Virus record (IMG/VR): IMGVR_UViG_3300028886_000082
Location: 10,243-74,242 of that record
DNA length: 64,000 nt
Strand: one strand, 5' to 3'
Origin: a virus
Taxonomy: Duplodnaviria; Caudoviricetes
Both the position numbers and the translations under genes were made by a program. Each line of letters starts with the position of its first letter. Positions within the stretch are counted from its first letter, which is position 1. The notes below the pieces were generated by a model, which made no database searches, was not told where the DNA came from, and worked only from the letters and a program-made list of their open reading frames with translations. Shown here piece after piece: positions 9,653 through 53,670 of the stretch.

Positions 9653-11326
9653 ATGGGAATAGCAATTTTAGTAGTAGCAGTCCTTGCAATAGCAGGAGCA
9701 GTAGTGTGGTTCTTCTTGAAGAACAAGAAAGAGCCAAGTGTTAAACCAGAGAAGCCCTCAGAGCCCGTCTCACAGCCTTCCAACCCACCTGTGGATGAAG
9801 TGCCAGCAGAAGAGGAGAAAGAGCCTGAGAAGCCAAAGGATGAGGAGATTAAGCCAGTGGAGGAAGAGAAGCCAGTAATCTCCAAACCAAAGCCTGATGC
9901 GCCAAAGCCTCCTGTTGTAGAGGAAAAGCCAAAGTATGACGAGGAGTTTGAGTCTTATATAGGTAAGTATAGCAAATTTGCCAAAATAGAGAGGGATTCT
10001 TCAACGTATAAATGGTTCTATGAGTTGTTCCGTGAGGCAAAGAGCCAATTGAGAATAGACACCTGTCATGGTTTGCCTATCCTTTTGAAACAAGAGAATT
10101 TCCCCACTCTCTATGAATGGGGAGACGAGGGTGATGCACAAAAGGCACAAGATACTCTTATTGGTTGGCTGTTCTCACTGCAACTTGCAGAATTGAAGCC
10201 CTATTACAGGGCTGACATCTTCAAGGTAGGCTATGAGATGGGTGGCTATGACAGGTATTCCAATATCTATGGTTGGAAATTTGAGTATGACCCCAACATC
10301 ATGCGTATATTGGCAGGTGCTATCTACCCTGCAATGAAAGGCTACTGTAAACCTGTGACAGAGACTTTAAGAAGAGAGGTGGAAGGCACTCGATATAACA
10401 GCACCTTACAGCAGCTCTATGACAACAATAGCCGTGACAATGTTGCTCCAAATGCTTTCTTCACTGACTTCAGAGTATTCATGCCCACAGCCCCTGCTCC
10501 TTATGCCCCTGCTTACTCAAAGAGACCTGACAGGACATACCCCAATGAAGAGAGGGATGAGTATGACAACCTCAAAGTGGATAGGCAGATTCATGAAATG
10601 ATTGTAGAAGCTTATAACCTCAATCAGCCAGAACATTATCAAGAGACTGTGCAGGCAATAGCTGACAAGGAAGTAGAAGCCAAACACATGTTTGGCAAGA
10701 ATAGACAGACCAAGAACTATCAGTTCCACCCTGTATTTGGTGAAGATACCATTGGTATTGAATTGCCAGATGAAGGGGAACTTGCCTCATTTGCCTACCT
10801 TGCATTCAGGACTGGCAGCTCTTCAAGAGGAATCATGCAGAGTGCAACAACCAATCCAGTGCAGTATGGAAGATTAAGACCTGGGTGCAGTTGGAATCAG
10901 GAGGGAAAGAAGAACTCAACAACAGATGATAGAAGGAATATCCTCACCAACTTTGAGATTGAGGATGGTGACGGCTCTCCAACAGGCTACTACGATGCAA
11001 ATGGTAATTGGGTCTATATGGACAATATCCACAACCCCGAAGAGTATGAGGAATACCAGAAGAATGCTCTCTATGCCAACTCATACCCAAGTGGTCATTC
11101 AAGTGGTATGTTCTGTGCTGCTATGCTTCTGGTGGAACTCATGCCAGACAAAGCAGATTTAATCCTGAGAGCTGCAAACCAGTATGCAGTGAACAGGACT
11201 ATATGCAGGTATCACTGGACAAGTGATACTATCAATGGAAGGGTGTTGGGTTCTGCTACCAATGCAGTCTGTCATGCAGCATCTGATTATTACTCAATGC
11301 TTGATAAGATAAAGAAGGAACTATGA
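9653..11326 (+). CDS. membrane-anchored PAP2/class A acid phosphatase-like protein
   Basis: N-terminal TM helix (IAILVVAVLAIAGAVVWFFL), Pro/Glu/Lys linker, C1 YGRLRP, C2 SYPSGHS, C3 NRTICRYHWTSD motifs. Confidence 0.85.
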   Translation: MGIAILVVAVLAIAGAVVWFFLKNKKEPSVKPEKPSEPVSQPSNPPVDEVPAEEEKEPEKPKDEEIKPVEEEKPVISKPKPDAPKPPVVEEKPKYDEEFESYIGKYSKFAKIERDSSTYKWFYELFREAKSQLRIDTCHGLPILLKQENFPTLYEWGDEGDAQKAQDTLIGWLFSLQLAELKPYYRADIFKVGYEMGGYDRYSNIYGWKFEYDPNIMRILAGAIYPAMKGYCKPVTETLRREVEGTRYNSTLQQLYDNNSRDNVAPNAFFTDFRVFMPTAPAPYAPAYSKRPDRTYPNEERDEYDNLKVDRQIHEMIVEAYNLNQPEHYQETVQAIADKEVEAKHMFGKNRQTKNYQFHPVFGEDTIGIELPDEGELASFAYLAFRTGSSSRGIMQSATTNPVQYGRLRPGCSWNQEGKKNSTTDDRRNILTNFEIEDGDGSPTGYYDANGNWVYMDNIHNPEEYEEYQKNALYANSYPSGHSSGMFCAAMLLVELMPDKADLILRAANQYAVNRTICRYHWTSDTINGRVLGSATNAVCHAASDYYSMLDKIKKEL

Positions 11327-38400: not shown

Positions 38401-41400
38401 CTACTCAATTTGGCCTATCTTGTCAAGCTCTTCAACGACCAATTGCATCTGACTGTTATAGAGCGCACGAAGATTCTTGCGGTCTCTTCCAGTAGATTGG
38501 TTGGCTGCTGTATTAATTTGCTTGAGTACCTTATCTGCTCTCTTCACAAACTCCATACGGACAGCATCATTGGTACTTGCCATCTCCATAGCCTTCATAT
38601 AGTGGTCTGGGTTGGTGTCAGCGTCTCTCATGTATCCTTTGAAGTCGTGGGCAAACTTGTTAGCTTCTTGCTGGTACTTATGATACTTTGCCTTTGTGCG
38701 GTAAATCTCGGTACGCTCGTCGCCCTGCTGCCAGAACGCTCTTGCAAACTCTATCTTACGGATATTAAAGTCAGGTTCTTCGTCCGTGAAGATTACGTTG
38801 TATGCATCTCTTATGGCGGAGCCTGTATTCATAAAGAACTTGCCAGGGCCTCCTGCATACTGTTCGAAGATGTACTGCATTGCGCCTGGGTTTATTTGAG
38901 CCCATCCTGCATGAACATCATCGCCACCGCTGACATCGTTCAACCACTTTGAAAGAGATATATAGGCAGAGTTGGTATTACCGTATGTCATTTGATACTC
39001 TGGTGTGTATTCGTCACCGTTGTATTTGTCCTGACGGAAAATCTGTCTACCCGTCCAAGAAAGGTTTTCTCCTACGGCTACTAATGGAGCCAGAGGCGAG
39101 CAGACTCTTCCTACCACTTCATGCACTGGGTCGTAGTTTGATGTAACCTTTGTCTCAAAGTCTACAGGTGAGAACACATTGAAGAATCCTATCATCTCGT
39201 CCATGAAGTCTTTGTCTACTGGCTTCAAGTTGGGATAGAGCGTGTTTCCTGCTATCATGTCTCCAAGTGTATAGAAGGCTGCAAGTTCCTGACCCATCGG
39301 TATCACCAAGAAGTCATTCTTCTTACCAGTTGCCCACCCAGTATAGATACATAGGTTCTTTCTGCGCACCCATTCAGGGAGGTTTGCGTATGGATCATCG
39401 TCATCACCGCCTCCAGCAAGACCGTAAAGCAAGTCGTTGATAACAGGCATCAGCATACCTAATGCAAATGGTGGTATTGCGTAGTAACCTACGAGTTTAC
39501 CGACATACGACTTGTTGATGCTGCCGTCTGAATTCCTGATGTTGCGGAAGATGTTGCAAATGCCTTGTACGGTGGCATTGAAAAACATCTTATTAGCCAA
39601 AAGAATCTGTGATACGTTTCCTGCTAACTTCGCAGTACGTGCCACCCATTTCTGTTCGGTCTTGAATCCAGCCGTATTCTTTCCTGCGCCACGCTTGTTG
39701 AAGTTTACCGTCACTTCCTTTGCATCGTAGGCAGAACGTGCCTTCGTGCGGCCTGCCACATGTCTTGATGCCCTATAGGTGGCAAAGCGGGCATTGTTCT
39801 CTATTGCTTCGTTGGCTGCTTCAAGTGCGCCAAGCGTCTTATCCCAGAAAGCGCTGCCCACCTTCTTGACTTTGCCTGGCGTGCTTATCATCTTCTGGAT
39901 ATCCCTCTGCAGCTCTTCTACCTTTTTCATGTGAACGAATCCCGTGATACCTCCACTATCCATGAAGTCCTTGAAGTCACGTTCCATTTCGTTCCTCATG
40001 TCAAGCTTACCCTCACGATACTTCTTGAAGAGTGATATCATCTTTGGAAGCTGTTCAAAGTAATAGCCTTGTGCTGCCTTTTCGTAGTTTCCACCTTCAC
40101 GGGCCATGAGAATAGCGCCGAAGTGAGTCCAGTCGCGAGCCATGTTTCGCCCCAAGAATGTAACGTTATAGGATGTACTTACAGACTGCATATAATACTT
40201 TGCATCGGCAATGAAAGAATCAAGTGGGCCATCGCCATGCTTGTATCTGAGCTGACCGTTAAGCGCCTGAGCCATTCTCGGATTGCCCATCACGACCATA
40301 GTCTTGCGGTTGCCGTTCATCATCACCTCAACGATGTGTTCTCGTTTATGCTCCTTATCCACCTTGTAATCGAATTTGGCATCACTCTTAACCTTCTTGG
40401 CCTTGCCTTCAAGTTCTAATTTGTTCATGCGTTCATAGAACTCTTTCGTCCTAGCCTCAACCTCCTGCGGCTTCATATCCTCATTAATCTGTGGATAGTC
40501 TGTTACCCATTCATCGGTAGTCGGGTCAAGAACTGCCCAAGTGTCGTTTATTTCCACAAGGTCATTTGGATTGGCCTGGCAGAGACGGTAGAACTTCTGC
40601 TTTACCATGTTCTGCTCTCCGTCCGAAATTGCTTTATAGGTCATGGCAAACAGCGTAGCGAGCGGATATCCTGCCTCGCTCTTACGGCCAGCGGCATTTT
40701 TCAGCAGACCACCTAATCTGCTTGCTCCGTCTTTGACGGTCATATATTGCCAATGGTCTTCAGATGATGTGTCATTAGAATAGCCTCTCATCGGAACGTA
40801 GAAGTGGAACATATTCGTGACACGTTTGTAGGTCGAGTCGCTTATCATGCCCGACTCACGATACTTGTCAAGGCCAAGCTGAGAGCAGAGGTTTATCTTG
40901 CTCCACATCTTATCCATGAGTTCCTTGCCCATCTTCTGCTCGTCATTCATAAGTTTATCAAGGATATCCTTCTCCTTGAAATCCTCACCGAACATTTCTG
41001 TGAAACCTGATGCGTCGTGTTCTTCGGCATCAAACTCTTCATCTATATTGTCGTGAATGAAATTATCGATGGCATCCAGATATTCGGGGAAGGTTTTCTT
41101 GCCTTCCATCAAGTCTTGGTAGGCTTGCTCCTTGGCTTCTACATAACTGTTCTCCAACTTGTCAAGCTGCTCCTGCCATAGCTTATCCAGAGCCTGATCG
41201 AGTTTCTTGTTCTTCTGTTCTTCGGTGATGTCACCATCCTCGAACTGCTCTTCAAGCCGTTCGGCAATCTTGTCGTAGGCTTCTTGCTGTTCATCGTCCA
41301 GATCGTCATAAGTGACATTCTTTCTTCGCTGACCCTTTAGCCAGTCTCTTACGAACAACTCACGATTGCGCTCAAATCCATGCTTGGTGAATAGGTATCG

Positions 41401-44400
41401 GTCAACATCGCCAGTCTGCCAGCCCATTTTTCGGCACACCTCATAAACGGTTTCCTCTAATGGTCGCTTGTAGATGTCCGTGAATTGCTCTTGCTGATTG
41501 TAAATCCTACCATACGAAAGATTCATTGCTTGGTAGGCATTCTGCGAATCGGGTATATCCTTATCTTTGGCAATGGCATTCTGACCATGCTTAAAGGTTA
41601 CCATATCATCCTGAGCGGCCTCTTGCATCATCGTGCTCGCCCTGTTGATACGGTCATGATATACCGCCTTTGCGGAATTCTTGTCTATCTCCTTGACACC
41701 TTCCTTCTGTTCTTTACGGAACTTGATCCAGCGTTTAGCGGATTGCTCTATTGCTTGGATGGGGTCTTCCGGTAGTTCGGATTCCTCTTCAGGGCGTATG
41801 ACGTTATCTCCCCGTCCTTGTCCCTGTTGACTACTTCCACGAACCTCGGTTGCTGATGTCTGTTCTCCTTCGCCAATTCGTCGAAGTTGATTGTTTCCTG
41901 CGTTTGTACTTTCTTGTCTGCCATTTTTAATATGATTTCTTAGTTCGTTTGCAAAGTTACAAATTTCTGGATTACCAACAAAGTTTCCATTCAAAAACTT
42001 TTCAGTTCCATAGCTATCAATGGCTACGTTACCTATTAGGAATGCACATGATTCATTGAACCAGTCGTATCTCTCGTAGTTGCCAGGCTTTGTGATATGA
42101 TTGAATATATCAGGACGGTTTACCCTCAACCATTCATAGCAAGCCTCTCCAAACTTACGGCGTACATCTTCGGGCATTTTCTGCCAGAAGCTATGCGTCT
42201 GCTCATGCCACCATGCAGCCTCTGCCTCCTTTGCATCCTCCAGATGTTCTCCGAATACGACTACTATACCCGCTCTTGGTATGTAAGCCGCTCCGTTGTC
42301 TGGGTCGCTGTAAAGCCTCTCTATCTCTCTATACACACGTCTGCTGACCTTATCTTTGAGAGCTTCAAGGTCTTGTGGGCTATTGATAGTATATGTCGGT
42401 GCGCTACCCTTCAAATCCTCACGGCTTGCAAGGCTATTCACCATATCAGATATTTCCTGCAATTTGCTATTGGTGGGAGTTTTGCCATTAGACTGCCGCC
42501 AACTCTCTGCTGCTTGATTGATAGCTTCTATCGGATCAGAGGTTGTTATCATGCGCTTGGGAGCGTCGCTGTCTTCCTTGGCACTCTCAACGGTCACGCC
42601 TAGCTCGTCGAGACGCTTTAAGATGGCATCGAGGTTCCTTGCAGGGAAGTCTGCGCTCATCTTTGTGCTTCCCTCAAACTGACCATCAACGAAGCTAAGG
42701 AGCGTTTCGTCATTAAAATACTTCTCACCTTTTTTCTTTGATTTAGGAACTTGAAGCGTATATCCATACGCATCATTGCGCCAATCGTATCTACCTCGTT
42801 TGACTGTTACGTCACCATCGGCAGAAACAATCTTGTTGTCCTTTTCAAAATCGTCTAGGTCATTCTTAGCAGAAGATATAGGATTCTTGCTCGTCAGCGC
42901 CTTCGGGTCGAACTGATCTGACATCAGGATACCTTGACGGATCTCGCCCGTATCTGTAGTATATGAAATCAGTTTACCGCCTTTTCCTTGACTACGGAGT
43001 GAGGTAAGTGCTTTCAGCAGATTACCCGTGATAATGTGTCCTTTCTTTCTGGTTGCCGTTGAAGTAAGTTTATCCCAGTTATCTACGTTCTGCTCCAATA
43101 CCTTTTGCATGTTGGCAAGGTTAGAGCCAAACATTCCGTTTCTAGTCTGTGCTGTCTGCTGAACAATGATAGGCTTGATGTCACGCTTCTCTCCATTATT
43201 CTGCTTAACCATGCCGCTAATAGGAATGGTAATCTTTCTGCGCCCGTCGAGCGTAGCAAACGTAATTGTACTAGCAGTGGTAGAATAGTTATCTTCCTTT
43301 ATATTGATGTCTATCACCTTACCAAAACTTGGTTCAAAGGTCAACTGTGAAAGGTCGTAGATGTCAGTAGGCAATGCATACACACCATCGGTAGAGAAAG
43401 TTTCAAGTGCATCTACGAATGCTTGCTTCTGTTTATCAACAGCTTCAAGAGCATTCTGCAGTTTCTCCATCTCTTGCTTATAGAAGGTGTCATACTGATA
43501 CTGAGAGTTCTTCTCTATCTCAGCATCTGTCATGCCATTCTTCTCCTGAGCTTTCTTAGCACCCTTTGCATACTTTTCTTTCTCGGCCTCGGCTTTCTTT
43601 TCGGCTCTCTCGGAAATTGTCTGTGTAGCCTCGGCTTTCTTTTTCTCAGCCCACTTATCTACCTTATCAAGTACACCCTGCTTGTATTCATCCCATGTCT
43701 TACCTCCAAGGAGTCTAGTCTGAGACTTCTTCACCTCTTCTGCCTTCATCGGCTTGCGAAGTACATCCATCTCCACTTCCTCAACGTATGAATTGTCGGC
43801 AAATGGATTCTTGCCTCCTGGCTCTACACCTGCTTCCCATACGTCCTTCTTTAAGGTCTTGGCACGGAGTGGCATTTCTGTAATCTCCAAGTCGTTCTCG
43901 CCCATCTCGTTCAGACGGTCTATCTCGGCTTGGTATAGGTCGCCGATTTCTTTCAGCATCTTCTCCTGCTCTTTAACGGTCAATAGTGCCATACGGCCAA
44001 GAACCTTGCTTGCGGTTGCTCCATCACCTTGTGCTTTCTGCGCCTGACTAACGAGCGTTTCTGCAGGAAGTGTCTCTGCTCCCTCTCCCCATTTCAGCGG
44101 GTCACACATCTTCATTGCCAAGTCAACGTGCTCTGAAAGATACTGGATAACGATGTCGTCACCATACTTATTAATAATGTCCTGCACCTGCATCTCGTTA
44201 AACTTCGACTTCTGCGAGGATGTGGTATTAGCATCTAGCGAGCGGAGTTTTGCTTTCAACATCATCAACAAGCGCTGCTCTGATGGAATCTGAGAGACTA
44301 CATATTCGTACATACCTCTCAGCACCTGTCCGGTTCTGTCGATACGTCCACGAATCTGAACCTCATCGTTCACGTCACCTTGCGCCTGCGCCACAATCAT

Positions 44401-47400
44401 GATTCGCTGGCGCTGATCCTTGAACGTAGATGATGCATGGAGTGAGATGCCAGTTCCTGCACTACGGTTGAGTATCAATGCATCAAGCTTGCCGTTATTG
44501 AAGTCTGCTGCAATCTTCTTCTTGTCGGTGTCCTGACGCTTTACACGCTTAACGGTTCCGTCATCATTGTAGACAAATTCGGCTTTGCGCCCCGTCAACT
44601 CGCCCACCTTATAGCCAGCTTTCTTCAACTCATTCTTGATGACGTCAATCGGTGACAAACTCAGACCACTTGAAGCATTCTCGATGGCATCCATGATTTC
44701 GGCATAACGTTTCTGGCCTTCCTCACTGAGTCTGTCGAAAGGTATCATCTCATTCACGGTATTGCCGAAGGCATCTTTCTTCGTGATACGCATCGTACCC
44801 TGCAATCCCTTCTTCAAGTTCACGCTCAGGTCTGGCATCTCCATAGACTCTCCGTCTGCGCCCGCTACCTCATCAGCTGCACCCTCGTTGGTGTTAGCCA
44901 CGGTTATCACTGGTTTACGGCCAAGCTTCAGGTGTTCAATGGCACGTTTGGCTGCTTCCTCGGCTTTTAGCGAAAGAAGTACTTGCTGCACCATGTTATA
45001 TGTACGTGAGGCAAACGGGGTGTTGTTAATACCCATATCACGGGTTCCTGGTGTGTGGTCTACTTCGCCCTGCTCCTCAGCTGCAGCATCGTTCAAGCCA
45101 TTCACAATAGGGTCAACATAAGTACGTTGGAACTGAATGATGTCGTTGAACAATCCGATAATGGTATCATACTGCTCGCGCTGCTTCTGAATGATGTCCT
45201 CATCCTCAATACCCTTCCAGTCGATGGTTACACCAGTCATGTCGCGCTCACGGCGAATCATCTGTCCTGCCTCGGTAAGAGCCTTAGACATAATCTCTTG
45301 GAAAGTAGCACCGCCACGCTTTACGGCATCAATCAGTTCTCCCACCTTTACACCAGCCTTACTGATGGCGGTCTTGAGCGAATAGATAGGCATGTTGCCC
45401 GGACGCTTGGCAAAGGTGGCCGAAAGGAATGTTAATCCCTTGGCCTTGGTTGTAATATACTGCAGATAGTTGCTTACGTTACTGCCTTCACCGCCTGCAT
45501 TATGGCTCTCGTCCATAATAACATAGCTATTGCCAGCAAGTGTCTCTAACGCATCGCGCTTAGCCTGCCCGTTTATATGAACTGGACCTGCTTTCTTCTT
45601 ACCAAAGTTTCGTGCTTTTTTGTTTCCGTCATCGTAGTCCATCGTACCACTCTTGAACGAGTCGTATGTGGTCAGCACATAGTCGTACTCTGGTGGGAGT
45701 TTCCCATTTTTATTGATGTAATCAACTACACGCTTTTGCTCTTTTGCATTAGGGGTCTGATAGATAACGTTGCCGTTCTTGTCGGTCACGTTGCCTGAGT
45801 GCTCGGTATCGTCTGCGCTCCAAATAAACGGCCTCAACTTGGGACTGCCAATATCGCAGAGGTCGCGGTACATATCAGAGAACAATGCTTTCTTGACGGT
45901 AATGAACACGGGGAAGCCTCCCTTCTTCACGCCATAGCGGATAAGGGCTGCTGCCTGTCTGCCTTTACCGATACCAGTCTGGTCGCCGATGATAAAGGCA
46001 TTACCTTGGTTCATCTGATGGATGGCAAGTGCTACGGAGTCAATCTGCTCTGCTGCAAGTGCCTGATGCAGTTCTTCCTTACTTGAATAACCAAGCTCGT
46101 CAACAAGGAACTGGTCTACATCGCCCAGCTCTTCGAGCGCACTCTTTACCACGTCGGCCTGCTCTGCGGGCATCAACGACTGAAGGGTAAAGGGGTTGCC
46201 GCTCTGCTTTCTGTAGGGTACTTTCTCGGTGCCTAAGCCTCGCTTGACTGCGGGCTGCTCAGGTTGCTGTGCAGGTTCGGCCCCTCGCTGTCCCACTCGC
46301 TGGCTATTGTCAGTTGTGGCAGCAGGTCGCTCAGTGTCATTTCCTCCAGGTTCATTTCGTTTTTCCCCTGCTTGCTCAGTGGTGCTCCTACCTGGTTGAG
46401 AAGCCTCTGTCCTGCTTCCGACTCCAGTAGGTCTTGTATCCACAGCTGGCTGGCTTGTGGTGTCAGTTCCTCTGGTGGCGTTACTACTTCCCGAAACACT
46501 TGATCCGTTTGAAGTACGTCCTGCAGGTTGCTTTTGGCTTCCTGCGGGCTGTACGTTTCGTACTCCCGTTTCAGTAGAAGCTCCAGCATTGCTGGTATCA
46601 TCCACTCTTCCACTCTTTCCGCTTTCTGTGTCGTGAACACTAGTGGGTTTGTTGCTGTCAGATAATATGTCATCGTTTACTCGTTTAAATAATTCGTCAT
46701 AACTGTTAACTCGCTCGGCTCTTGCCTTCTGTATGGTCGGCGCAAAGCTTCTTGGGTTGAACTCCTTGCGTCCGTTGATGAGTATCATTCTCACGGGGAA
46801 GCCTGTTCCCTGACGTGAATACAGCTCATGGCCGTTCATGTTGATCACGTCTACCACATTATAGTGTGCATAGAGGTAGTTCAAGAAGGCTCTGTCTTTG
46901 CCCTTGATGCTGCCGTTCTGATTGTACTCGGTGTTGCCTCCGATGATAATGGCGGCACGGCCATCATCCTTCATCGACTCCAGGGCATTGAGAGCCATCT
47001 GATGCTCCAAGCCAGAAATCTCATAGATGCCGTCGTACACCTTCGGGGTGACATTGCCAAACGGCGGGTTGGTGACTACCACATCAAACTTCTTCTCGCC
47101 GAACGACTGCAATCCATCTTGGCTCGTCACTTCACCGAATCCCTGCTTCTGAAGGTTGGAGAGCCGCATTTCGTCAATGTCGTTGACGTGCATCTTCTCC
47201 TTGGGCAGATTGATAGTCAGCATTCCGTTTCCTGCTGATGGCTCCAGTCCGCTCTCTACCTTCTTGCCTGCTGACAGGAACTGCCCCATCAGGAATGCCA
47301 TCGGTGCAGGCGTAGAGTACTGCTGCTTGTTGATGCGGTCATTATCTCTTGCGTTGAGGCTGGGCTGACCTTCATACAGCTTCACTATCTTCTGAAACTT

Positions 47401-50400
47401 CTTTTCGTCCGTCAATCCTTCCTTGTTGGCTATCTCTCTGGCAAGGCTTACAACCTCTGTCTCAATCAGCTCCTGTAGGTCTGTATCTGAAAGGTTCTCA
47501 ATCCCAAGTTCCTTTGCAATCTGCTTATAGACACTAAGTGGCTTTGGCTGGTCGCCCCAATTCATAATGCCCTGCAACTTGGCGCGTATCTTCTTGCTCA
47601 GTTGTTCAATCTTATACTGCCTATCTGCAAACTCTGCCGAGTCGCCTTCCAGCTCACTCGCTGGTTTCTGCTGCAAAGATAAGTCTTTTTCCGGCTCGTT
47701 GTCCTCCTTTTTGTTATCGTTCACAGTCTGGTCGGCAGGCTTAGTATTATTTAACCTTTCAGCATGCTCGCTGAGCCTCATGCGCTGTCCGTCAACGGTG
47801 TATTTCTGATTCCATACCTCATTGACAAACTCACCGATGATTGCATCATCCCAACCAAGAACCTCTCTCAGTTTTGCACCGATGGATTCAGACATCTTCT
47901 TACTCCATGCCTGCACGTCATGCACGCCACTCTTGATATAGGCATAGCCTACCTTTGAAGCCAGTCGGAGCAAGTCTTTCAGGAACATACGCTGCGCATC
48001 GTTTGTAAGCGTAAAGGCATCGAGCAAGCTGGCCTGCGCCTTGTCGTTACCCTCCAAGCCCTTGCGCATGAACTTGTCAAGCACATTGGATCCCTTGGCA
48101 TTATCTAAGAAGTCGTTGAACTCCTTCAAGGCATCGTCAATGTCCTTCTGGTCTTTGGATTTCTGCTGCTCTCTGCGGAAATCTCCTGCTGCACGCTCGA
48201 TTGCCTCCATTGGGTCACTCTCACCACGCAACCGAGATGATGTTACCTCATAAAATGTTTTTGTGTATGAACCTTTTGCACGGGAACTAATATATTCTTC
48301 TGATAGATCAAGAAACTGCTTTGCGAGAATCTTATCTGCTTCTGGAACATTGCTTGACTCAATTTCTTCAACCGTAAGAGGATGCTCTTTTATATATTGT
48401 TCTCGCCAATTTAAAATTGAAGCGTTTGAAGAAGCCTCTGCTGGCTTCGCCTTCTGCGCTCTCTCATAAATCTGGTCGTAGTAGAAACGGGAGATAACGC
48501 TATCCTCGCCATTGAGGAAGTCGATGGCATTCAGCTTCTCGTCCTCATTGGCTTCTGTGTCAGCCATAATCTGCTCTTCCGTCAGAGGATGGCTTGCAAG
48601 ATAATCTTCACGGCTCTGCGTCTTAGGCTGCTCTTCGGTATCAATCTTAGTCTGCCTGCGATAGTTATCCAAGGCACCACGGATGCGACTATTGCGCTCT
48701 TCAATGGATTGCAGTCGGTTAAGCTTGTTGGTGGCTTCCTGCAGTTTCTCACGCTGTGCAGCGGTTCTGTGCTCTACTCCCTCTGCAGAGGTATCAAGTC
48801 CCATTTCCTCTTGTGAGAAGATGGCATCAGGTTCTGCAAAGGTCTCGTCGTTGGCAAACAGGTCTGTTGCACGCTCGCTTTCCTTTGCCCGTGCCTTTTC
48901 AAGTTCTGTACGCGCTTTATTGGCATCTTCTACTGCATCACCAATCTCTTGCTGCAACTGCGCAAGTACATTGGCAATGATCTGTTCCTCCTCTGCATTT
49001 CGAGGCTGGAGATACGGGTCTTCTACTGATTCAGGACTTCTTTGGCCTTCTGGCTCATTTGTTCCTTCTGCTGCTGGAGTCTCTGCGCTTTCTCCATCCT
49101 GCATTTCGTCACGAAGTCCTTCATTGTCGGTATCGGATAATTCTTCTGTTTCATTATATGCATGTTTAAATTGTTCAAGATTCTCTCTCAATGATTCTGG
49201 TGTAACTGCACCAGAGAATACGATAAGCGTGTCTGTTGCGTCATTATATACGATGCCCATTTCAAATGCATTGCTTCGAACTGTATTGACATCCTCTTCG
49301 CTAACAAATGCACCATCAAATACCTCAGATGCAAAGTCTATCCAATCGCCGTCGGTCATCTGGTCTGTGTCAACCATTCTGACTGCAGGCATACCGCCAT
49401 CCTGCGATACTTCCCTTATAACTGCCCAAAGAGCATTAATCGGGTTTTCTGGTATATCAACTCCATCTTCAGGTCTTGCGAACGGAAGGCTAGCTTCTAT
49501 CTGTGCCTGCTCTTCATCTGTGATTGGCGCAACCTCTTCCGTTGGATTTTGTGCCTCTTCTTCAGCTCTCTGCCTTTGTTCCTGCAAAGCGGCCTCTGCT
49601 TTGGCAATTCGACTATTGAGGGCATAATCCACGACATCACTCTTGCTCTGTGCTGATTTGATAAGATCAAGCAAGGCCTCCTTGATTTCCTCGGTAGTGA
49701 ATCTTGGATTGCCATCAGCTCCCATATTTTCCTCACTCTGCCAGACCATGTGAACGAACTCGTCAATACCGATACCTTCGCCATTCTTGGCAAGTAGGGT
49801 CTCAATGTACTTGGTGTCGCCACCAATCCTACGAGTCCAACCCAGCTCCTTCTGCAGTCCACGTTTACCATTGACATCTTCCCATGCAAGGTTACGCTTA
49901 CGGCCTACCCACATGGAAGCAAGTTCGAATGCGTCTTCTGCTTTCGTGAAGTCATCATCAAACAACTCACCATACTTTGCCTTGGCCTCCGCAATCCGCT
50001 GCTGCTTCTGTTCCTCGACGGTGAGATTCGACTGCGAAGATACGGGTTTTTCCTTAACAATAGGCGCTTCTGGCTGAACATTTACGGTTTCTTCACTTTT
50101 GGCAGGTGCTTCCGGCTGATTCATCTCTGCCCAGCGTGCCTTTACATTATTATAATAGTCTATGGTTGCCTGGGCCTTCTTTCGCTTCTCAATATCTAAG
50201 CGGGTTTTAACCTGCTTATTATTTATCTTGTCGATAACCTCTTGAGCCTCAGCGATTGACGCATTAGATATTTCGTTCACATCATCGCCATCGTTCTGAA
50301 TGTCGGCAATGGCATCATCTACCGCAATGCCATTCTCATAGCGTTTGATTCCGTCCTTGTCTATCACGCTCTCGATGGTCACGGCTGGCTGCTGAGGCTG

Positions 50401-53400
50401 TGCAGCATCTTCTTGTGCAGCCTCAACAGAAGGGGCTGGCTGTGCTTCGTTTGCTCCAGTGACACTATTTGCACCTGCCTCTGCACTAGCCTGTCCCTCT
50501 GATGGCTGTTCTTGTAATGGTTGGTTTGTGGCTATAATCGGGCTCCATGCTTCCTGTAATCTTGTGCGTTCCGCTTCTTCAAACTGGGCAGCAGGGATTA
50601 CGTTTGGCATAAGGCTATAACCATCTGTCTCGTTCAGCTGAACAAAGCTACCATCTAAATCCATTCCGATGATAAGTCCAGAGTTGGAGCCCGTGATACG
50701 CCCAGTTGCGGGATCTGTAGTTATATTACCCGAAACAAGATAATATTCATTCGTTCCGTCGGAAATCGTGTAGATATTACCAAGGTCTGCATTTCCGTTA
50801 ATGGTTCCCTTCATTGTGTGGCGCTGGGTAGAGTCTGCGGCTTCTTCGTCTATCTTGTTTCCCATCTGATTGACAAACGCCTCATACTGGGCCTTCTGAT
50901 TGTAGTAGTCAATCATCGCCTGCTGTTCAATTGGTAGGAAAGTTTCCAGACGAGAAAGTATTTCCTGATGAGACAGACCTTCCCATTCCATACGAGTAAC
51001 TTCCTGCTTCAGTTCTTCGTTGGAATCAAATGCAATGCGGCGTTTGCCTTGCGCCTCCATCCACTTCGCCTTTATTTCTGATCCTGCTTCAGGGTTTGGA
51101 TTCTCAATTTCTAGGGATGCATTATCCGCTTCCTTCTGTCCGTCCTCCGCACTTTGTTCCTCATGGAGCATAGTGTTGTCATAGACGGTATTATGAACTG
51201 CCTTTGCAAAGCCAGTGACTAGTTGTTGCTCTACGTCCGTCCGCTCCATTGATGGTTTAGAGAGAGCTTCTTCCATTACCGATGGTTCCACTCCAACCTC
51301 AACACTATAGTCAATAAGCATCTTGTCGTAATCAAAGCCACCGTTTGGTCTGGACTTCATCACGCTTATGTCTGCGTTCAGGTCGTTGTCGAAGCGTGTC
51401 TGCTGTGCCTCATAAAGACCAGCTTCCATATCATCCCTATTTTCGTAGTCATGATGGGCTATCACGTTTCCGTTCTCGTCAAGCTCATCAAATGAATTAC
51501 CGCTAACACGATAGCTAGCCACTCTTGGAGTGATGTCTGCCACACGGGATGCCGAAAGCACGGTTCCTATATTATATCCACGCAGGTTGATAAGGTCTTG
51601 CGCATAAAACATCACGGCCTCTTTTTCCTGGTCTGACAGTTGGCCTTGGCGCACAAGCTGATTGATGACGTTGCCTATGTTGGCGTTGGTAGAACCATCA
51701 AGCATAGATTTGATGGTGTTGTACCTATCTATATCGGCCAACGTTTCTTCCAGTCTGTTGTCGCTCTGGTTAAGGTTGTATTTATATCCATAGTAGTGAG
51801 CCCGACCATATCCACTTGCAACCATCTGAGGCGCACGGAGCAATGCACCTGTCAGTCCTACGGTTGCCCATGTGTTAAGCTGAGTATCAAGGTCGGTGAT
51901 ACTCTCTGCGTTTGGATCGAACTCGCCACCAGTGATTGAGTTAAGTATAGATGTGCGGAGCATACCGTACTCTTCTTCCATACCTTCACCGAATACACTC
52001 TGAATACCCATGAAGTCAAGTGCTTTCTCACCGCCTCTCCAGAACTTGTTGCTTGTAATCTTCTTCAAAAGTTCACCACCAACCTTGTTTCTGATAACAC
52101 GTCCAAGCATACCTGGTATGATGTCAAATGCAGGGCCTACAAGTTCGGAAGCATTCTCGCCTGGATTTTTCAACTCACCATAAAGGATTGCTTTGCCCAA
52201 GTCCTCGCTGTCACGCATTGAAAGTTTTCCTTCTTTGTCAACTGACAACGTTCCGATGCTCCGGTTTGCTATATCAGAGAAAGTCTTTGCCACACCGACA
52301 GTATTGGCTTGCATGGCTCCACCTATTTCAGCACCTGCAGCCAGACCTCCGAACTTAGTACCATACTGCATAGTCTTTGTGAGAGCTTTGCCTGCAAGTC
52401 CGAGGTTTTTGGTAAGATACTTAGCCATTCCACTTTCGGCAATCTTCAAACCTCCCTTAGTTCCCAGACGATAACCCGCCTTTGCTACATTAGCAAAACC
52501 ACCTCCAGTAACGGCAAAGTCCTTCATGAAGTCAAGCGTCTGTCCGAATCCTTGTCCGGTTGTGTATAGCCATCCACGGTTATTGTTAAGCGTCTGCGCT
52601 TCTTGGTTCATCAGATAGTTGCGCACAAACAACTTTTCGTTGTTGGTAAGGTTAGGCACTCCGCCATTGGCAGCATCTATCTTCTTGGATATGGAATCAA
52701 GAAGTTTCATGTCGGCTGCATCGCTCAACCCGAAACTCAGGCTTGAATCGTCTGTAAGAACATCTGCAGTACCCTGCCAGAATCCTGCATTGTCTCTTTC
52801 TGCCTCCAAAGCCTTGATGCGACGTTCGAGCATTCTCCTTGCAGATAGTATGTAGTCTTGCTGTTGGGCATTATCCATGTCGCCGCTTGCAAGTCCAGAA
52901 CCACCGGCAAGCCCCATTCCTCTAGCAAGACGTGCAGCCTGTCCCAGTCTTCCCTTATCTATTTCTACATCCAAGGCTTCAAGTTCTGCGTATGCATTCT
53001 TGATCCTTTCGTTGATGTCTTTGTCACTCTCACCAGTTATATCACCAATGCCAAGCTTTTCCATGTTTTCCTTGAACTGAGCCATCTCGCCCTGATAGTC
53101 CATGAAGTCCTGCATATTGCTTGCTTCTCCAGGGTTGGTATAGCTTTTTCCGTCGGTGGTCATGTAGGTGTCTTCGAATTGGCCAGTCTCTGCATTGAAG
53201 GATTTCTGTCCCTTTCTGAGATTCTTGTTGAACACTAACCCGGTCTGACCGTCTCCAACAGGAGAAGCGTTCTTTCTGTTTTTCTCCTGCTCATCTATGC
53301 CTTTTGTGACATTCTTTGCTGTGTTCTGTGCGGAATTCATTGTCATGCCAAACCCCATAAGCTCCTGCTCCGTAGGCTTGTAGGGCCCAGACTGGTTTTT

Positions 53401-53670
53401 TTGAGGTTGAGGAGTTGGCTCTTGGGCAGTTACCGTTGGTTGTTCCACCTGCGGTTGTGTCGGCTGAGGTGCGGGCTGCTTGGGTTGTTGTCCTTCAAGA
53501 ACTGCATCAGGGTATTTCTTTAGAAATCCATCACGCTTACTTAATGGGATGCCATAGGTCTTCCCGTTAGCTTGATAGTTTACCGTTGCATTAGGATTAT
53601 CTTTCTCAAAGTTTGATGCTACATTGTCGGGAATATTATAGGTTTTCCCATTAAGTTTGTATATCGGCAT
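38401..53670 (-). CDS. giant polyvalent virion protein (DarB-like): N6-adenine MTase, Strawberry-notch SF2 helicase, HExxH metallopeptidase, LPD38-like C-terminus
   Basis: EPSAGNG and NPPFG (~47.25-47.06 kb); GDQTGIGKGRQ, DESH, SAGTGISLH, GRIDRTGQ (~46.0-44.3 kb); WWHEQTH (~42.2 kb); LPEWVRRKN...IPMGQEL (~39.4-39.3 kb). Confidence 0.9.
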   Translation of the reverse strand: MPIYKLNGKTYNIPDNVASNFEKDNPNATVNYQANGKTYGIPLSKRDGFLKKYPDAVLEGQQPKQPAPQPTQPQVEQPTVTAQEPTPQPQKNQSGPYKPTEQELMGFGMTMNSAQNTAKNVTKGIDEQEKNRKNASPVGDGQTGLVFNKNLRKGQKSFNAETGQFEDTYMTTDGKSYTNPGEASNMQDFMDYQGEMAQFKENMEKLGIGDITGESDKDINERIKNAYAELEALDVEIDKGRLGQAARLARGMGLAGGSGLASGDMDNAQQQDYILSARRMLERRIKALEAERDNAGFWQGTADVLTDDSSLSFGLSDAADMKLLDSISKKIDAANGGVPNLTNNEKLFVRNYLMNQEAQTLNNNRGWLYTTGQGFGQTLDFMKDFAVTGGGFANVAKAGYRLGTKGGLKIAESGMAKYLTKNLGLAGKALTKTMQYGTKFGGLAAGAEIGGAMQANTVGVAKTFSDIANRSIGTLSVDKEGKLSMRDSEDLGKAILYGELKNPGENASELVGPAFDIIPGMLGRVIRNKVGGELLKKITSNKFWRGGEKALDFMGIQSVFGEGMEEEYGMLRTSILNSITGGEFDPNAESITDLDTQLNTWATVGLTGALLRAPQMVASGYGRAHYYGYKYNLNQSDNRLEETLADIDRYNTIKSMLDGSTNANIGNVINQLVRQGQLSDQEKEAVMFYAQDLINLRGYNIGTVLSASRVADITPRVASYRVSGNSFDELDENGNVIAHHDYENRDDMEAGLYEAQQTRFDNDLNADISVMKSRPNGGFDYDKMLIDYSVEVGVEPSVMEEALSKPSMERTDVEQQLVTGFAKAVHNTVYDNTMLHEEQSAEDGQKEADNASLEIENPNPEAGSEIKAKWMEAQGKRRIAFDSNEELKQEVTRMEWEGLSHQEILSRLETFLPIEQQAMIDYYNQKAQYEAFVNQMGNKIDEEAADSTQRHTMKGTINGNADLGNIYTISDGTNEYYLVSGNITTDPATGRITGSNSGLIIGMDLDGSFVQLNETDGYSLMPNVIPAAQFEEAERTRLQEAWSPIIATNQPLQEQPSEGQASAEAGANSVTGANEAQPAPSVEAAQEDAAQPQQPAVTIESVIDKDGIKRYENGIAVDDAIADIQNDGDDVNEISNASIAEAQEVIDKINNKQVKTRLDIEKRKKAQATIDYYNNVKARWAEMNQPEAPAKSEETVNVQPEAPIVKEKPVSSQSNLTVEEQKQQRIAEAKAKYGELFDDDFTKAEDAFELASMWVGRKRNLAWEDVNGKRGLQKELGWTRRIGGDTKYIETLLAKNGEGIGIDEFVHMVWQSEENMGADGNPRFTTEEIKEALLDLIKSAQSKSDVVDYALNSRIAKAEAALQEQRQRAEEEAQNPTEEVAPITDEEQAQIEASLPFARPEDGVDIPENPINALWAVIREVSQDGGMPAVRMVDTDQMTDGDWIDFASEVFDGAFVSEEDVNTVRSNAFEMGIVYNDATDTLIVFSGAVTPESLRENLEQFKHAYNETEELSDTDNEGLRDEMQDGESAETPAAEGTNEPEGQRSPESVEDPYLQPRNAEEEQIIANVLAQLQQEIGDAVEDANKARTELEKARAKESERATDLFANDETFAEPDAIFSQEEMGLDTSAEGVEHRTAAQREKLQEATNKLNRLQSIEERNSRIRGALDNYRRQTKIDTEEQPKTQSREDYLASHPLTEEQIMADTEANEDEKLNAIDFLNGEDSVISRFYYDQIYERAQKAKPAEASSNASILNWREQYIKEHPLTVEEIESSNVPEADKILAKQFLDLSEEYISSRAKGSYTKTFYEVTSSRLRGESDPMEAIERAAGDFRREQQKSKDQKDIDDALKEFNDFLDNAKGSNVLDKFMRKGLEGNDKAQASLLDAFTLTNDAQRMFLKDLLRLASKVGYAYIKSGVHDVQAWSKKMSESIGAKLREVLGWDDAIIGEFVNEVWNQKYTVDGQRMRLSEHAERLNNTKPADQTVNDNKKEDNEPEKDLSLQQKPASELEGDSAEFADRQYKIEQLSKKIRAKLQGIMNWGDQPKPLSVYKQIAKELGIENLSDTDLQELIETEVVSLAREIANKEGLTDEKKFQKIVKLYEGQPSLNARDNDRINKQQYSTPAPMAFLMGQFLSAGKKVESGLEPSAGNGMLTINLPKEKMHVNDIDEMRLSNLQKQGFGEVTSQDGLQSFGEKKFDVVVTNPPFGNVTPKVYDGIYEISGLEHQMALNALESMKDDGRAAIIIGGNTEYNQNGSIKGKDRAFLNYLYAHYNVVDVINMNGHELYSRQGTGFPVRMILINGRKEFNPRSFAPTIQKARAERVNSYDELFKRVNDDILSDSNKPTSVHDTESGKSGRVDDTSNAGASTETGVRNVQPAGSQKQPAGRTSNGSSVSGSSNATRGTDTTSQPAVDTRPTGVGSRTEASQPGRSTTEQAGEKRNEPGGNDTERPAATTDNSQRVGQRGAEPAQQPEQPAVKRGLGTEKVPYRKQSGNPFTLQSLMPAEQADVVKSALEELGDVDQFLVDELGYSSKEELHQALAAEQIDSVALAIHQMNQGNAFIIGDQTGIGKGRQAAALIRYGVKKGGFPVFITVKKALFSDMYRDLCDIGSPKLRPFIWSADDTEHSGNVTDKNGNVIYQTPNAKEQKRVVDYINKNGKLPPEYDYVLTTYDSFKSGTMDYDDGNKKARNFGKKKAGPVHINGQAKRDALETLAGNSYVIMDESHNAGGEGSNVSNYLQYITTKAKGLTFLSATFAKRPGNMPIYSLKTAISKAGVKVGELIDAVKRGGATFQEIMSKALTEAGQMIRRERDMTGVTIDWKGIEDEDIIQKQREQYDTIIGLFNDIIQFQRTYVDPIVNGLNDAAAEEQGEVDHTPGTRDMGINNTPFASRTYNMVQQVLLSLKAEEAAKRAIEHLKLGRKPVITVANTNEGAADEVAGADGESMEMPDLSVNLKKGLQGTMRITKKDAFGNTVNEMIPFDRLSEEGQKRYAEIMDAIENASSGLSLSPIDVIKNELKKAGYKVGELTGRKAEFVYNDDGTVKRVKRQDTDKKKIAADFNNGKLDALILNRSAGTGISLHASSTFKDQRQRIMIVAQAQGDVNDEVQIRGRIDRTGQVLRGMYEYVVSQIPSEQRLLMMLKAKLRSLDANTTSSQKSKFNEMQVQDIINKYGDDIVIQYLSEHVDLAMKMCDPLKWGEGAETLPAETLVSQAQKAQGDGATASKVLGRMALLTVKEQEKMLKEIGDLYQAEIDRLNEMGENDLEITEMPLRAKTLKKDVWEAGVEPGGKNPFADNSYVEEVEMDVLRKPMKAEEVKKSQTRLLGGKTWDEYKQGVLDKVDKWAEKKKAEATQTISERAEKKAEAEKEKYAKGAKKAQEKNGMTDAEIEKNSQYQYDTFYKQEMEKLQNALEAVDKQKQAFVDALETFSTDGVYALPTDIYDLSQLTFEPSFGKVIDINIKEDNYSTTASTITFATLDGRRKITIPISGMVKQNNGEKRDIKPIIVQQTAQTRNGMFGSNLANMQKVLEQNVDNWDKLTSTATRKKGHIITGNLLKALTSLRSQGKGGKLISYTTDTGEIRQGILMSDQFDPKALTSKNPISSAKNDLDDFEKDNKIVSADGDVTVKRGRYDWRNDAYGYTLQVPKSKKKGEKYFNDETLLSFVDGQFEGSTKMSADFPARNLDAILKRLDELGVTVESAKEDSDAPKRMITTSDPIEAINQAAESWRQSNGKTPTNSKLQEISDMVNSLASREDLKGSAPTYTINSPQDLEALKDKVSRRVYREIERLYSDPDNGAAYIPRAGIVVVFGEHLEDAKEAEAAWWHEQTHSFWQKMPEDVRRKFGEACYEWLRVNRPDIFNHITKPGNYERYDWFNESCAFLIGNVAIDSYGTEKFLNGNFVGNPEICNFANELRNHIKNGRQESTNAGNNQLRRIGEGEQTSATEVRGSSQQGQGRGDNVIRPEEESELPEDPIQAIEQSAKRWIKFRKEQKEGVKEIDKNSAKAVYHDRINRASTMMQEAAQDDMVTFKHGQNAIAKDKDIPDSQNAYQAMNLSYGRIYNQQEQFTDIYKRPLEETVYEVCRKMGWQTGDVDRYLFTKHGFERNRELFVRDWLKGQRRKNVTYDDLDDEQQEAYDKIAERLEEQFEDGDITEEQKNKKLDQALDKLWQEQLDKLENSYVEAKEQAYQDLMEGKKTFPEYLDAIDNFIHDNIDEEFDAEEHDASGFTEMFGEDFKEKDILDKLMNDEQKMGKELMDKMWSKINLCSQLGLDKYRESGMISDSTYKRVTNMFHFYVPMRGYSNDTSSEDHWQYMTVKDGASRLGGLLKNAAGRKSEAGYPLATLFAMTYKAISDGEQNMVKQKFYRLCQANPNDLVEINDTWAVLDPTTDEWVTDYPQINEDMKPQEVEARTKEFYERMNKLELEGKAKKVKSDAKFDYKVDKEHKREHIVEVMMNGNRKTMVVMGNPRMAQALNGQLRYKHGDGPLDSFIADAKYYMQSVSTSYNVTFLGRNMARDWTHFGAILMAREGGNYEKAAQGYYFEQLPKMISLFKKYREGKLDMRNEMERDFKDFMDSGGITGFVHMKKVEELQRDIQKMISTPGKVKKVGSAFWDKTLGALEAANEAIENNARFATYRASRHVAGRTKARSAYDAKEVTVNFNKRGAGKNTAGFKTEQKWVARTAKLAGNVSQILLANKMFFNATVQGICNIFRNIRNSDGSINKSYVGKLVGYYAIPPFALGMLMPVINDLLYGLAGGGDDDDPYANLPEWVRRKNLCIYTGWATGKKNDFLVIPMGQELAAFYTLGDMIAGNTLYPNLKPVDKDFMDEMIGFFNVFSPVDFETKVTSNYDPVHEVVGRVCSPLAPLVAVGENLSWTGRQIFRQDKYNGDEYTPEYQMTYGNTNSAYISLSKWLNDVSGGDDVHAGWAQINPGAMQYIFEQYAGGPGKFFMNTGSAIRDAYNVIFTDEEPDFNIRKIEFARAFWQQGDERTEIYRTKAKYHKYQQEANKFAHDFKGYMRDADTNPDHYMKAMEMASTNDAVRMEFVKRADKVLKQINTAANQSTGRDRKNLRALYNSQMQLVVEELDKIGQIE
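41748..41924 (-). CDS. putative nested +1-frame small protein (58 aa)
   Basis: MADKKVQTQETINFDELAKENRHQQPRFVEVVNRDKDGEITSYALKRNPNYRKTPSKQ; AT-rich start context (catattaaaaATG). Confidence 0.45.
   Translation of the reverse strand: MADKKVQTQETINFDELAKENRHQQPRFVEVVNRDKDGEITSYALKRNPNYRKTPSKQ
46233..46601 (-). CDS. putative nested +1-frame protein (122 aa; alternative start at 46673)
   Basis: Leu/Glu-rich, helical-looking sequence under a G/R/S/T-rich linker of the giant ORF. Confidence 0.6.
   Translation of the reverse strand: MIPAMLELLLKREYETYSPQEAKSNLQDVLQTDQVFREVVTPPEELTPQASQLWIQDLLESEAGQRLLNQVGAPLSKQGKNEMNLEEMTLSDLLPQLTIASEWDSEGPNLHSNLSSPQSSEA
49023..49154 (-). CDS. putative nested +1-frame small protein (43 aa)
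   Basis: MKQKNYPIPTMKDFVTKCRMEKAQRLQQQKEQMSQKAKEVLNQ; AT-rich start context (gcatataATG). Confidence 0.35.
   Translation of the reverse strand: MKQKNYPIPTMKDFVTKCRMEKAQRLQQQKEQMSQKAKEVLNQ

Follow-up and report, generated by a model that had tools for sequence, protein, structure and literature searches.

A probable +1-frame gene nested in the methylase–helicase linker of a giant DarB-like phage protein

Introduction

Genes embedded in the +1 frame of another gene are classical in phages: in phage lambda, Rz1 lies within Rz on the same strand and the two products bind each other, and in phiX174 gene E lies within D. In hepatitis B virus (HBV), the polymerase spacer overlaps the preS envelope region, and T7 Ocr and ArdA exemplify the small, acidic DNA-mimic anti-restriction proteins. 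Here we analyze a 64,000-nucleotide stretch (positions 10,243 to 74,242 of the 74,242-base IMG/VR virus record IMGVR_UViG_3300028886_000082, Duplodnaviria; Caudoviricetes; hereafter the window) from a phage whose sequence occurs in the bovine gut metagenomes of no fewer than 11 studies. Its subject is a 146-amino-acid (aa) open reading frame (ORF) at 46233–46673, which runs in the +1 frame of a giant gene for a virion-type protein with a DarB-like methylase–helicase dyad and which, judging from sequence comparisons, is very probably a real overlapping gene.

Polyvalent proteins of phages and conjugative elements, co-delivered with DNA, have been described as carrying DarB-like dyads together with LPD-type domains (Iyer, Burroughs, Anand, de Souza and Aravind 2017, PMC5512222). 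The giant gene carries the same dyad and LPD-type domains; that account makes no mention of overlapping or frameshifted genes, and the nested gene stands outside the architecture it describes. In phage P1, DarB needs small co-packaged helpers, among them Ulx, a 17 kDa, virion-associated protein that is encoded beside darB and 'aids DarB localization' (PMC9024508, PMC12810830). Ulx is tied to a DarB-type dyad, as the nested protein is, and it has an acidic-aromatic C-terminal tail (...DDQDYEFESYDLEVE...) and exactly 146 aa (P1 ulx, locus L104, NC_005856, 9995–10435, minus strand); the resemblance is one of size and tail character only. It is unlike the nested family in sequence (hhalign probability 0.2%, E 0.29), its gene is a separate, non-overlapping downstream one, and it is far less acidic (isoelectric point (pI) 5.3, charge -4). 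A shared function is a lead only, by analogy and not by membership. The +1 ORFs of P1 darB itself, judged without relatives, are basic and junk-like.

Like Rz1, the nested gene is small and complete and lies inside a larger one, whose strand and late transcript it shares and which it overlaps in the +1 frame, and the nested and giant products are presumably needed simultaneously, as with Rz and Rz1. It differs from that pair in its host segment, which is the disordered linker of a 5089-aa protein, behaves as a neutral spacer and is less constrained than the nested frame; it differs also in its product, which is acidic and soluble-looking and no lipoprotein, and a partnership of the two products is known for Rz/Rz1 only. 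The closest logic is that of HBV, where a tolerant tether between two enzymatic domains likewise carries a constrained gene in another frame, selection on that overlapping frame prevails and the spacer needs only to remain open, although HBV has a compact animal-virus genome, whereas this is a 74-kb phage with no obvious compaction pressure and a product of a new family. With Ocr and ArdA the nested protein shares small size, strong negative charge (pI ~4.3) and association with an anti-restriction module, but no solved mimic matched it in sequence or fold, and it belongs to a late virion operon rather than to early genes. Literature searches turned up no account of a gene nested in a DarB-type dyad, in keeping with what an earlier reading of this DNA, made from the sequence only, had stated.

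Results

A second reading frame in the methylase–helicase linker

The locus comprises the following elements.

46233..46673, minus strand: probable nested +1-frame gene, 146 aa plus stop, overlapping main-frame aa 2334–2480
38401..53670, minus strand: host giant gene, a single open frame of 5089 aa for a predicted polyvalent virion-type protein with a DarB-like methylase–helicase dyad, an HExxH region and LPD38
46236..46672, minus strand: main-frame linker, aa 2334–2479, G/R/S/T-rich, stop-free and with neutral-spacer evolution

The nested ORF is complete, with start and stop, and lies wholly within 38401–53670 on the same strand at an offset of +1, its frame being open for 147 codons (46233–46676). 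The sequence-only reading had singled out this place by a G/R/S/T-rich main frame and a 122-aa product read in the +1 frame from ATG 46601. The linker (aa 2332–2479) does have that composition, and the 122-aa translation was exact, including its 15 Glu and 3 Arg. Since GAR codons in the +1 frame force NGA-type codons on the host and CTN codons force NCT-type codons, the main-frame richness in G, R, S and T reads as the shadow of an acidic, Leu-rich +1 frame with its Glu, Leu and Gln codons.

Only where a host codon has T at position 2 can a +1 stop arise. Such codons number 12 of 148 in the linker (23% gene-wide), the lowest density in the gene, and +1 stops are therefore few there. When codons were shuffled synonymously, 19% of trials produced a +1 run of 147 codons or more anywhere in the gene and 8% produced one in the linker, which justifies the caution, voiced when the frame was first noticed, that +1 frames easily stay open in hydrophilic linkers. 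Antisense frames of the giant gene contain open runs of up to 320 codons. As ORF length in a single sequence is not beyond chance, the question is decided by comparison with relatives.

Selection on the two frames

Comparison with relatives revealed an inversion of codon-position variability that coincides with the ORF. The flanks show the pattern of the host frame, with far more variability at position 3 (0.46) than at the other two positions; within the ORF, variability is lowest at host position 3 (0.25–0.28) and highest at host position 1, which is position 3 of the nested frame. Synonymous codon differences at identical host residues amount to 19% in the ORF and to 44–47% in the flanks. 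In the clade of this phage, the Nei–Gojobori ratio of nonsynonymous to synonymous differences per site (pN/pS) is 0.30–0.69 in the +1 frame and 0.73–1.80 in the host frame. When clades A, B and C were analyzed separately, the ratios were 0.59, 0.27 and 0.54 for the +1 frame and 1.19, 1.50 and 1.14 for the host frame, with +1 pN below pS in 15/15, 28/28 and 324/325 pairs, respectively; such ratios (NG86) are biased for overlapping frames, and pairs within a clade are related, so the counts are not independent.

The scan of the whole gene was aligned in the host frame and is hence biased against the +1 frame. Over the 15-kb gene it found inverted codon-position variability only at aa 2309–2475, and of 199 windows (minimum +1 pN/pS 0.54, median 1.17) the eight lowest are all located on the nested ORF. 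Despite the bias of the ratios and the kinship of the pairs, the effect, as far as sequence comparison can tell, is large, replicated and confined to this part of the gene. The suggestion of an overlapping gene in this linker is thus borne out by purifying selection (+1 pN/pS 0.27–0.59) and synonymous suppression found nowhere else in the gene in this form.

The host frame is under selection as well. When the nested protein was recoded with the codon usage of the gene, the host frame acquired a mean of 10.3 stops, and none of 20,000 recodings was stop-free; the host frame must therefore also be selected, and the overlap is true dual coding. Only 5% of nested codons end in T, versus 26% gene-wide. 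Among homologues, the pI of the host-frame segment ranges from 4.4 to 12 and the nested protein stays acidic, a pattern in which the host frame appears as a tether that needs only to stay open and hydrophilic.

Variation within the phage population was also recorded. One run X5 contig (depth 8.6 of 41.6) has one base inserted after 46589 and one deleted at 46596, a compensated pair 7 bases apart in the overlap that would alter 2–3 residues in both frames. Among the population variants listed, 5/9 in the ORF fall on host position 1 and 24/31 in the flanks on position 3; this hand count points in the same direction as the selection results and was given no weight.

Conservation across relatives

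To avoid ascertainment bias, 59 viral loci were gathered solely by alignment of the helicase N-terminus (32–91% identity), a procedure blind to the +1 frame. A +1 ORF of 109–221 codons, ending 11–95 nt before the helicase match, was present in 58/59 of these contigs, and the sole exception has 43 stops in its main frame. The same two-frame layout occurs in 15/16 readable loci of Bacteroidales genomes, presumably prophages, and the nested ORF is also found, at 10044–10388 of record PQ571277, in BS-TP4, a cultured temperate phage of Bacteroides salyersiae (host strain BG8) whose reported prevalence in one collection of human gut viromes is 31% (PMC12694917). Four close viral contigs (74–82% identity over the dyad) share the ATG of the +1 frame and stay open in that frame to nearly the same end point; their substitutions are conservative in the +1 frame, and the main frame varies freely. 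The third sense frame is closed at every locus, and antisense frames are open inconsistently. Both results that had been proposed as checks, conservation of the +1 frame (58/59) and synonymous-site suppression across the linker (three clades), were accordingly seen among relatives.

Some relatives have stops in the giant frame (L021, L072, L059, L066, L101 and L103, with 1, 1, 28, 43, 27 and 31 stops, respectively), and in L021, L072, L059 and L103 the nested ORF is intact despite them. These stops may reflect assembly errors, decayed prophages or a small gene outliving the giant one. Two loci near-identical to clades of Bacteroidales phages (L086 and L095) come from metagenome-assembled genomes (MAGs) labelled Staphylococcus sp. 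and Bacillota bacterium, most likely because these MAGs were mis-binned or mislabelled.

Translation start and probable mode of expression

The sequence upstream of the nested ORF has the properties of a start region.

46674..46713, minus strand: probable translation initiation region, AT-rich and still within the last part of the methylase domain; a +1 TAA stands two codons ahead of the ATG

The A+T fraction over positions -20 to -1 of ATG 46673 is 0.75, and that of 28 real starts in the window is 0.75 ± 0.10. Internal ATGs average 0.52, only 2.3% of 386 reaching 0.75, and ATG 46601, from which the 122-aa product had been read, has 0.45. A start at 46601 is accordingly unlikely, given an earlier ATG with true-start context that yields 146 aa. 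In 38 distinct relatives representing every clade, the first ATG lies 0–17 codons past the upstream +1 stop, and the mean A+T of the start context across the 38 distinct homologues is 0.70 against a background of 0.51. Shine–Dalgarno (SD)-like GGAG/GAGG motifs stand 6–9 nt upstream of the ATG in the most distant clade. Synonymous variation in the host frame is suppressed from aa ~2309–2320 on, about 15–25 codons before the ATG, as expected for an initiation region. ATG 46673, which in the host frame straddles a pair of Asp codons, is thus likely to be the nested gene's own translation start signal.

No Bacteroidetes TAnnTTTG (-7 promoter) box was found within ~1 kb upstream on the minus strand, and translation from the late mRNA of the giant gene is therefore the simplest reading. 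Ribosomes on the late mRNA of the 5089-aa gene would initiate at the internal ATG 46673 in its Bacteroidota-type AT-rich context; reading in the +1 frame would yield the 146-aa acidic protein, and the same DNA in the host frame would provide the flexible, hydrophilic tether between methylase and helicase.

The nested protein

The predicted product begins with Met-Thr-Tyr and has 146 aa, a pI of 4.26 and a net charge of -14. From an alignment of 37 members of this clade, AlphaFold2 (AF2) predicted a fold with a mean predicted local distance difference test score (pLDDT) of 80.6 and a predicted template modelling score (pTM) of 0.73, with a mostly helical core (residues ~1–123) made up of five helices between two short strands, the first of them N-terminal. 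For the BS-TP4-type clade (33 sequences), the prediction reached a pLDDT of 91.1 and a pTM of 0.85, and the order of secondary-structure elements matches that of this clade. From residue 124 on, the tail is disordered (pLDDT <50), and it contains a conserved motif.

46266..46301, minus strand: acidic-aromatic motif SEWDSEGP.LHS, residues 125–136, in the disordered C-terminal tail; conserved

In this motif, E126 and D128 are invariant and G131 is nearly so. C-termini of other clades read TEWD, ADWD or SDW(Q/R), and most of the 44 distinct nested proteins have a C-terminus of the type (S/T)(E/D)W(D/Q). Acidity is likewise general, with 42/44 distinct nested proteins being acidic (median pI 4.39) and charges ranging from -9 to -24.

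Searches with the profile of the family against 1.84 billion representative proteins gave 13 matches, all of 69–153 aa and never a segment of a large protein. There are 42 called copies, all on contigs <3.2 kb, and in the seven such contigs that were read (including L016 and L076–L080) the nested ORF is spanned by an open giant frame; these called copies are therefore nested ones, which gene calling picked up only where the big gene is truncated. Elsewhere on its contig, L076 has giant-frame stops. Stand-alone homologues, which would favour the alternative idea that a neighbouring gene was captured during domain accretion, were absent from the 13 profile matches and the short contigs read, and a genome scan with the nested protein gave no match. 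Two called copies (P0005 and P0010) bear the Joint Genome Institute (JGI) label 'predicted transposase YdaD', for which there is no Pfam support and which looks like an annotation artefact that could spread. The family TnpV (PF14198) matched none of the 37 + 33 + 10 nested proteins from all clades at E values up to 0.1–1; a TnpV search of 201 Bacteroidota genomes gave no match, but nor did its controls, and it is thus uninformative. In sum, the nested product constitutes a new protein family.

Alternative explanations

Several observations weigh against a true embedded gene with its own start, an acidic folded product and a possible partnership with the dyad. In a single sequence, the length of the nested ORF is within chance in a linker so poor in T at position 2 that it hardly makes +1 stops, and the selection ratios carry the bias and the kinship of pairs stated above. 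Relations within the family are distant: clades A and C are linked only modestly by hhalign (probability 56%, E 1e-4), and clade B has no detectable sequence likeness to either in profile comparison. The nested protein matched no Pfam or PHROGs family, nothing in a sequence-profile search of the PDB, nothing by Foldseek against the PDB and BFVD, no fold in VIA-align wide (best Z 4.0 and 3.6), and nothing in the ESM Atlas by features or by shape. The dyad of Acinetobacter phage MD-2021a (L085, CAKLQH020000019.1; 29% identity) contains no +1 or +2 ORF of at least 60 codons. RNA data at the locus consist of two 151-nt contigs of one metatranscriptome run that are identical to the window and could be DNA, and the suggested partnership with the dyad draws solely on position, charge and analogy. 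Taken as a whole, an embedded gene of this description is nevertheless what we consider likely, at slightly lower confidence than the existence of the overlapping gene as such.

The main competing explanation is a programmed +1 (or -2) frameshift just past the methylase, which would join an acidic C-terminal domain to a truncated methylase protein and make no separate small protein. Selection on the +1 frame is equally expected in that case; over the first ~20 nested codons the nucleotides are near-invariant at all three codon positions, as a recoding signal might be, and the Acinetobacter relative has an acidic main-frame segment after its methylase. A frameshift would, however, have no need of an ATG within 18 codons of the +1 stop in every clade, nor of its AT-rich or SD-bearing context, and the N-terminal residues from M1 on belong to the confident fold. 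Neither a slippery nor a stop-stimulated site was recognised by eye in 46600–46720, with no systematic scan made, and +1 frameshifting is rare in phage structural genes. We consider a frameshift improbable and infer independent initiation instead. Still less credence can be given to the idea of a shadow ORF, in which the +1 frame is open merely because the linker is poor in T at position 2, codes for no protein and is conserved as a by-product. That idea agrees with the 12/148 codons and the 8–19% of shuffles cited above and with the finding that the other +1 ORFs of the same gene are shadows. What it leaves unexplained is why conservation is strongest at host third positions and weakest at first positions, why +1 pN/pS falls to 0.27–0.59 in three clades and forms a unique outlier among 199 windows, why the context is start-like and AF2, given the alignments, folds the product confidently, and why the +1 protein stays acidic whereas the host-frame pI wanders from 4.4 to 12.

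Synonymous suppression alone would fit any overlapping functional element, and long antisense open stretches do exist in some homologues, so that an RNA or DNA element or an opposite-strand gene in the linker might be invoked in place of +1 coding. The variability nonetheless has a three-base period in the +1 register (positions 1/2/3 = 0.35/0.30/0.47, 0.12/0.11/0.25 and 0.32/0.28/0.42 in the three clades), and indels and hydrophobic positions show the pattern of a protein. Antisense frames are inconsistently open and cover 30–60% of the region in this clade, with no antisense ORF >79 aa in the window here; neither a conserved covarying RNA structure nor an antisense ORF open in all clades was seen. 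We regard an element of this kind as the least credible of the alternatives, with hardly any likelihood of its own, and retain the embedded gene as the best account of the locus.

The giant gene and its other +1 frames

The domains on either side of the nested gene are as follows.

46672..47508, minus strand: N6-adenine methyltransferase domain, aa 2055–2333, 5'-adjoining and slightly overlapping the nested start region
44701..46239, minus strand: helicase N-terminal half (Strawberry-notch/SNF2-type), aa 2478–2990, from Pfam AAA_34 and SNF2-rel_dom matches and from alignments

In the giant protein, Pfam found AAA_34 (2.6e-13), Helicase_C_4 (5e-26), LPD38 (1.4e-26) and MTS/N6_Mtase (2e-5 to 8e-4), as well as the Strawberry-notch C-terminal domain and SNF2-rel_dom; the MTS, N6_Mtase and Eco57I matches lie at aa ~2145–2253. 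The PHROGs match is phrog_14770 (4.8e-231). NPPF is invariant in the alignment of methylase domains and GKGR in that of the helicases, and helicase onset falls 0–30 codons past the nested stop in all relatives. By this domain content, the giant protein is a predicted polyvalent protein with a DarB-type methylase–helicase dyad and LPD domains.

Two more +1 ORFs in similar linkers had been pointed out alongside the nested one, each following an enzyme-like domain. They exist, but they do not hold up as genes, having stops in close homologues. ORFs 41748–41924, 49023–49178 and 49497–49889 contain 2–22 stops in four close relatives, and their synonymous variation is normal (0.37–0.44 versus 0.47 gene-wide); all three were rejected as chance ORFs. 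The stops and the normal synonymous variation also mean that the proposal of one nested partner for each enzyme-like domain fails, and no general pattern remains. One other window of the giant gene, 47710–47829 (aa 1948–1987), has a lowered fraction of synonymous differences (0.24 versus 0.47 gene-wide); its codon-position order is normal and it has no long alternative ORF, and noise or a short constraint at the nucleotide level is the probable cause.

Discussion

Across the family, the nested gene is tied to the methylase–helicase junction and would be expressed with a late virion-type protein, which makes a part in the production or packaging of the giant protein seem likelier than an early anti-host role. 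The small protein may be a direct partner of the dyad during production and packaging, either as a chaperone or packaging aid or as an inhibitory, acidic, DNA-mimic-like partner; in this it would parallel the small helpers of P1 DarB, such as Ulx. This is a tentative proposal, which we rate somewhat below an even chance. Its charge and its acidic-aromatic tail would fit an occupant of a DNA-binding surface (inhibitor, lid or chaperone) and a DNA-mimic effector equally well. A more specific form of the proposal is that the partner, made in cis, would act as a DNA-mimic-like lid or packaging chaperone on the DNA-binding surface of the methylase or helicase, keeping the dyad silent or packaging-competent in the producer until its release in the next host; we hold this form to be rather unlikely. 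The inhibitor in the producing cell that the sequence-only reading had envisaged would be one version of such a dyad partnership.

As to origin, the nested frame could have been born in a permissive tether, or a once-separate gene could have been bridged by a fusion in the other frame. The nested frame is now more constrained than the host frame, and no separate version was found. In the Acinetobacter phage, the main-frame linker (aa ~560–690 of the N-6 DNA methylase coding sequence) is acidic with scattered hydrophobic residues and loosely recalls the nested protein, which may bear on how the overlap arose.

In every record examined, including that of BS-TP4, only the giant gene is annotated, as it is by gene finders. 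As a result, databases do not show a conserved protein family that belongs to common Bacteroidales phages of the human gut and the rumen. Its recognition would add an unrecognised component to the DarB-type anti-restriction machinery and would offer a clean natural example of a disordered inter-domain tether that hosts a second, more constrained gene, with a bearing on the origin of new genes and on the reading of linker composition. With BS-TP4 and its host in culture, the nested gene is open to direct testing.

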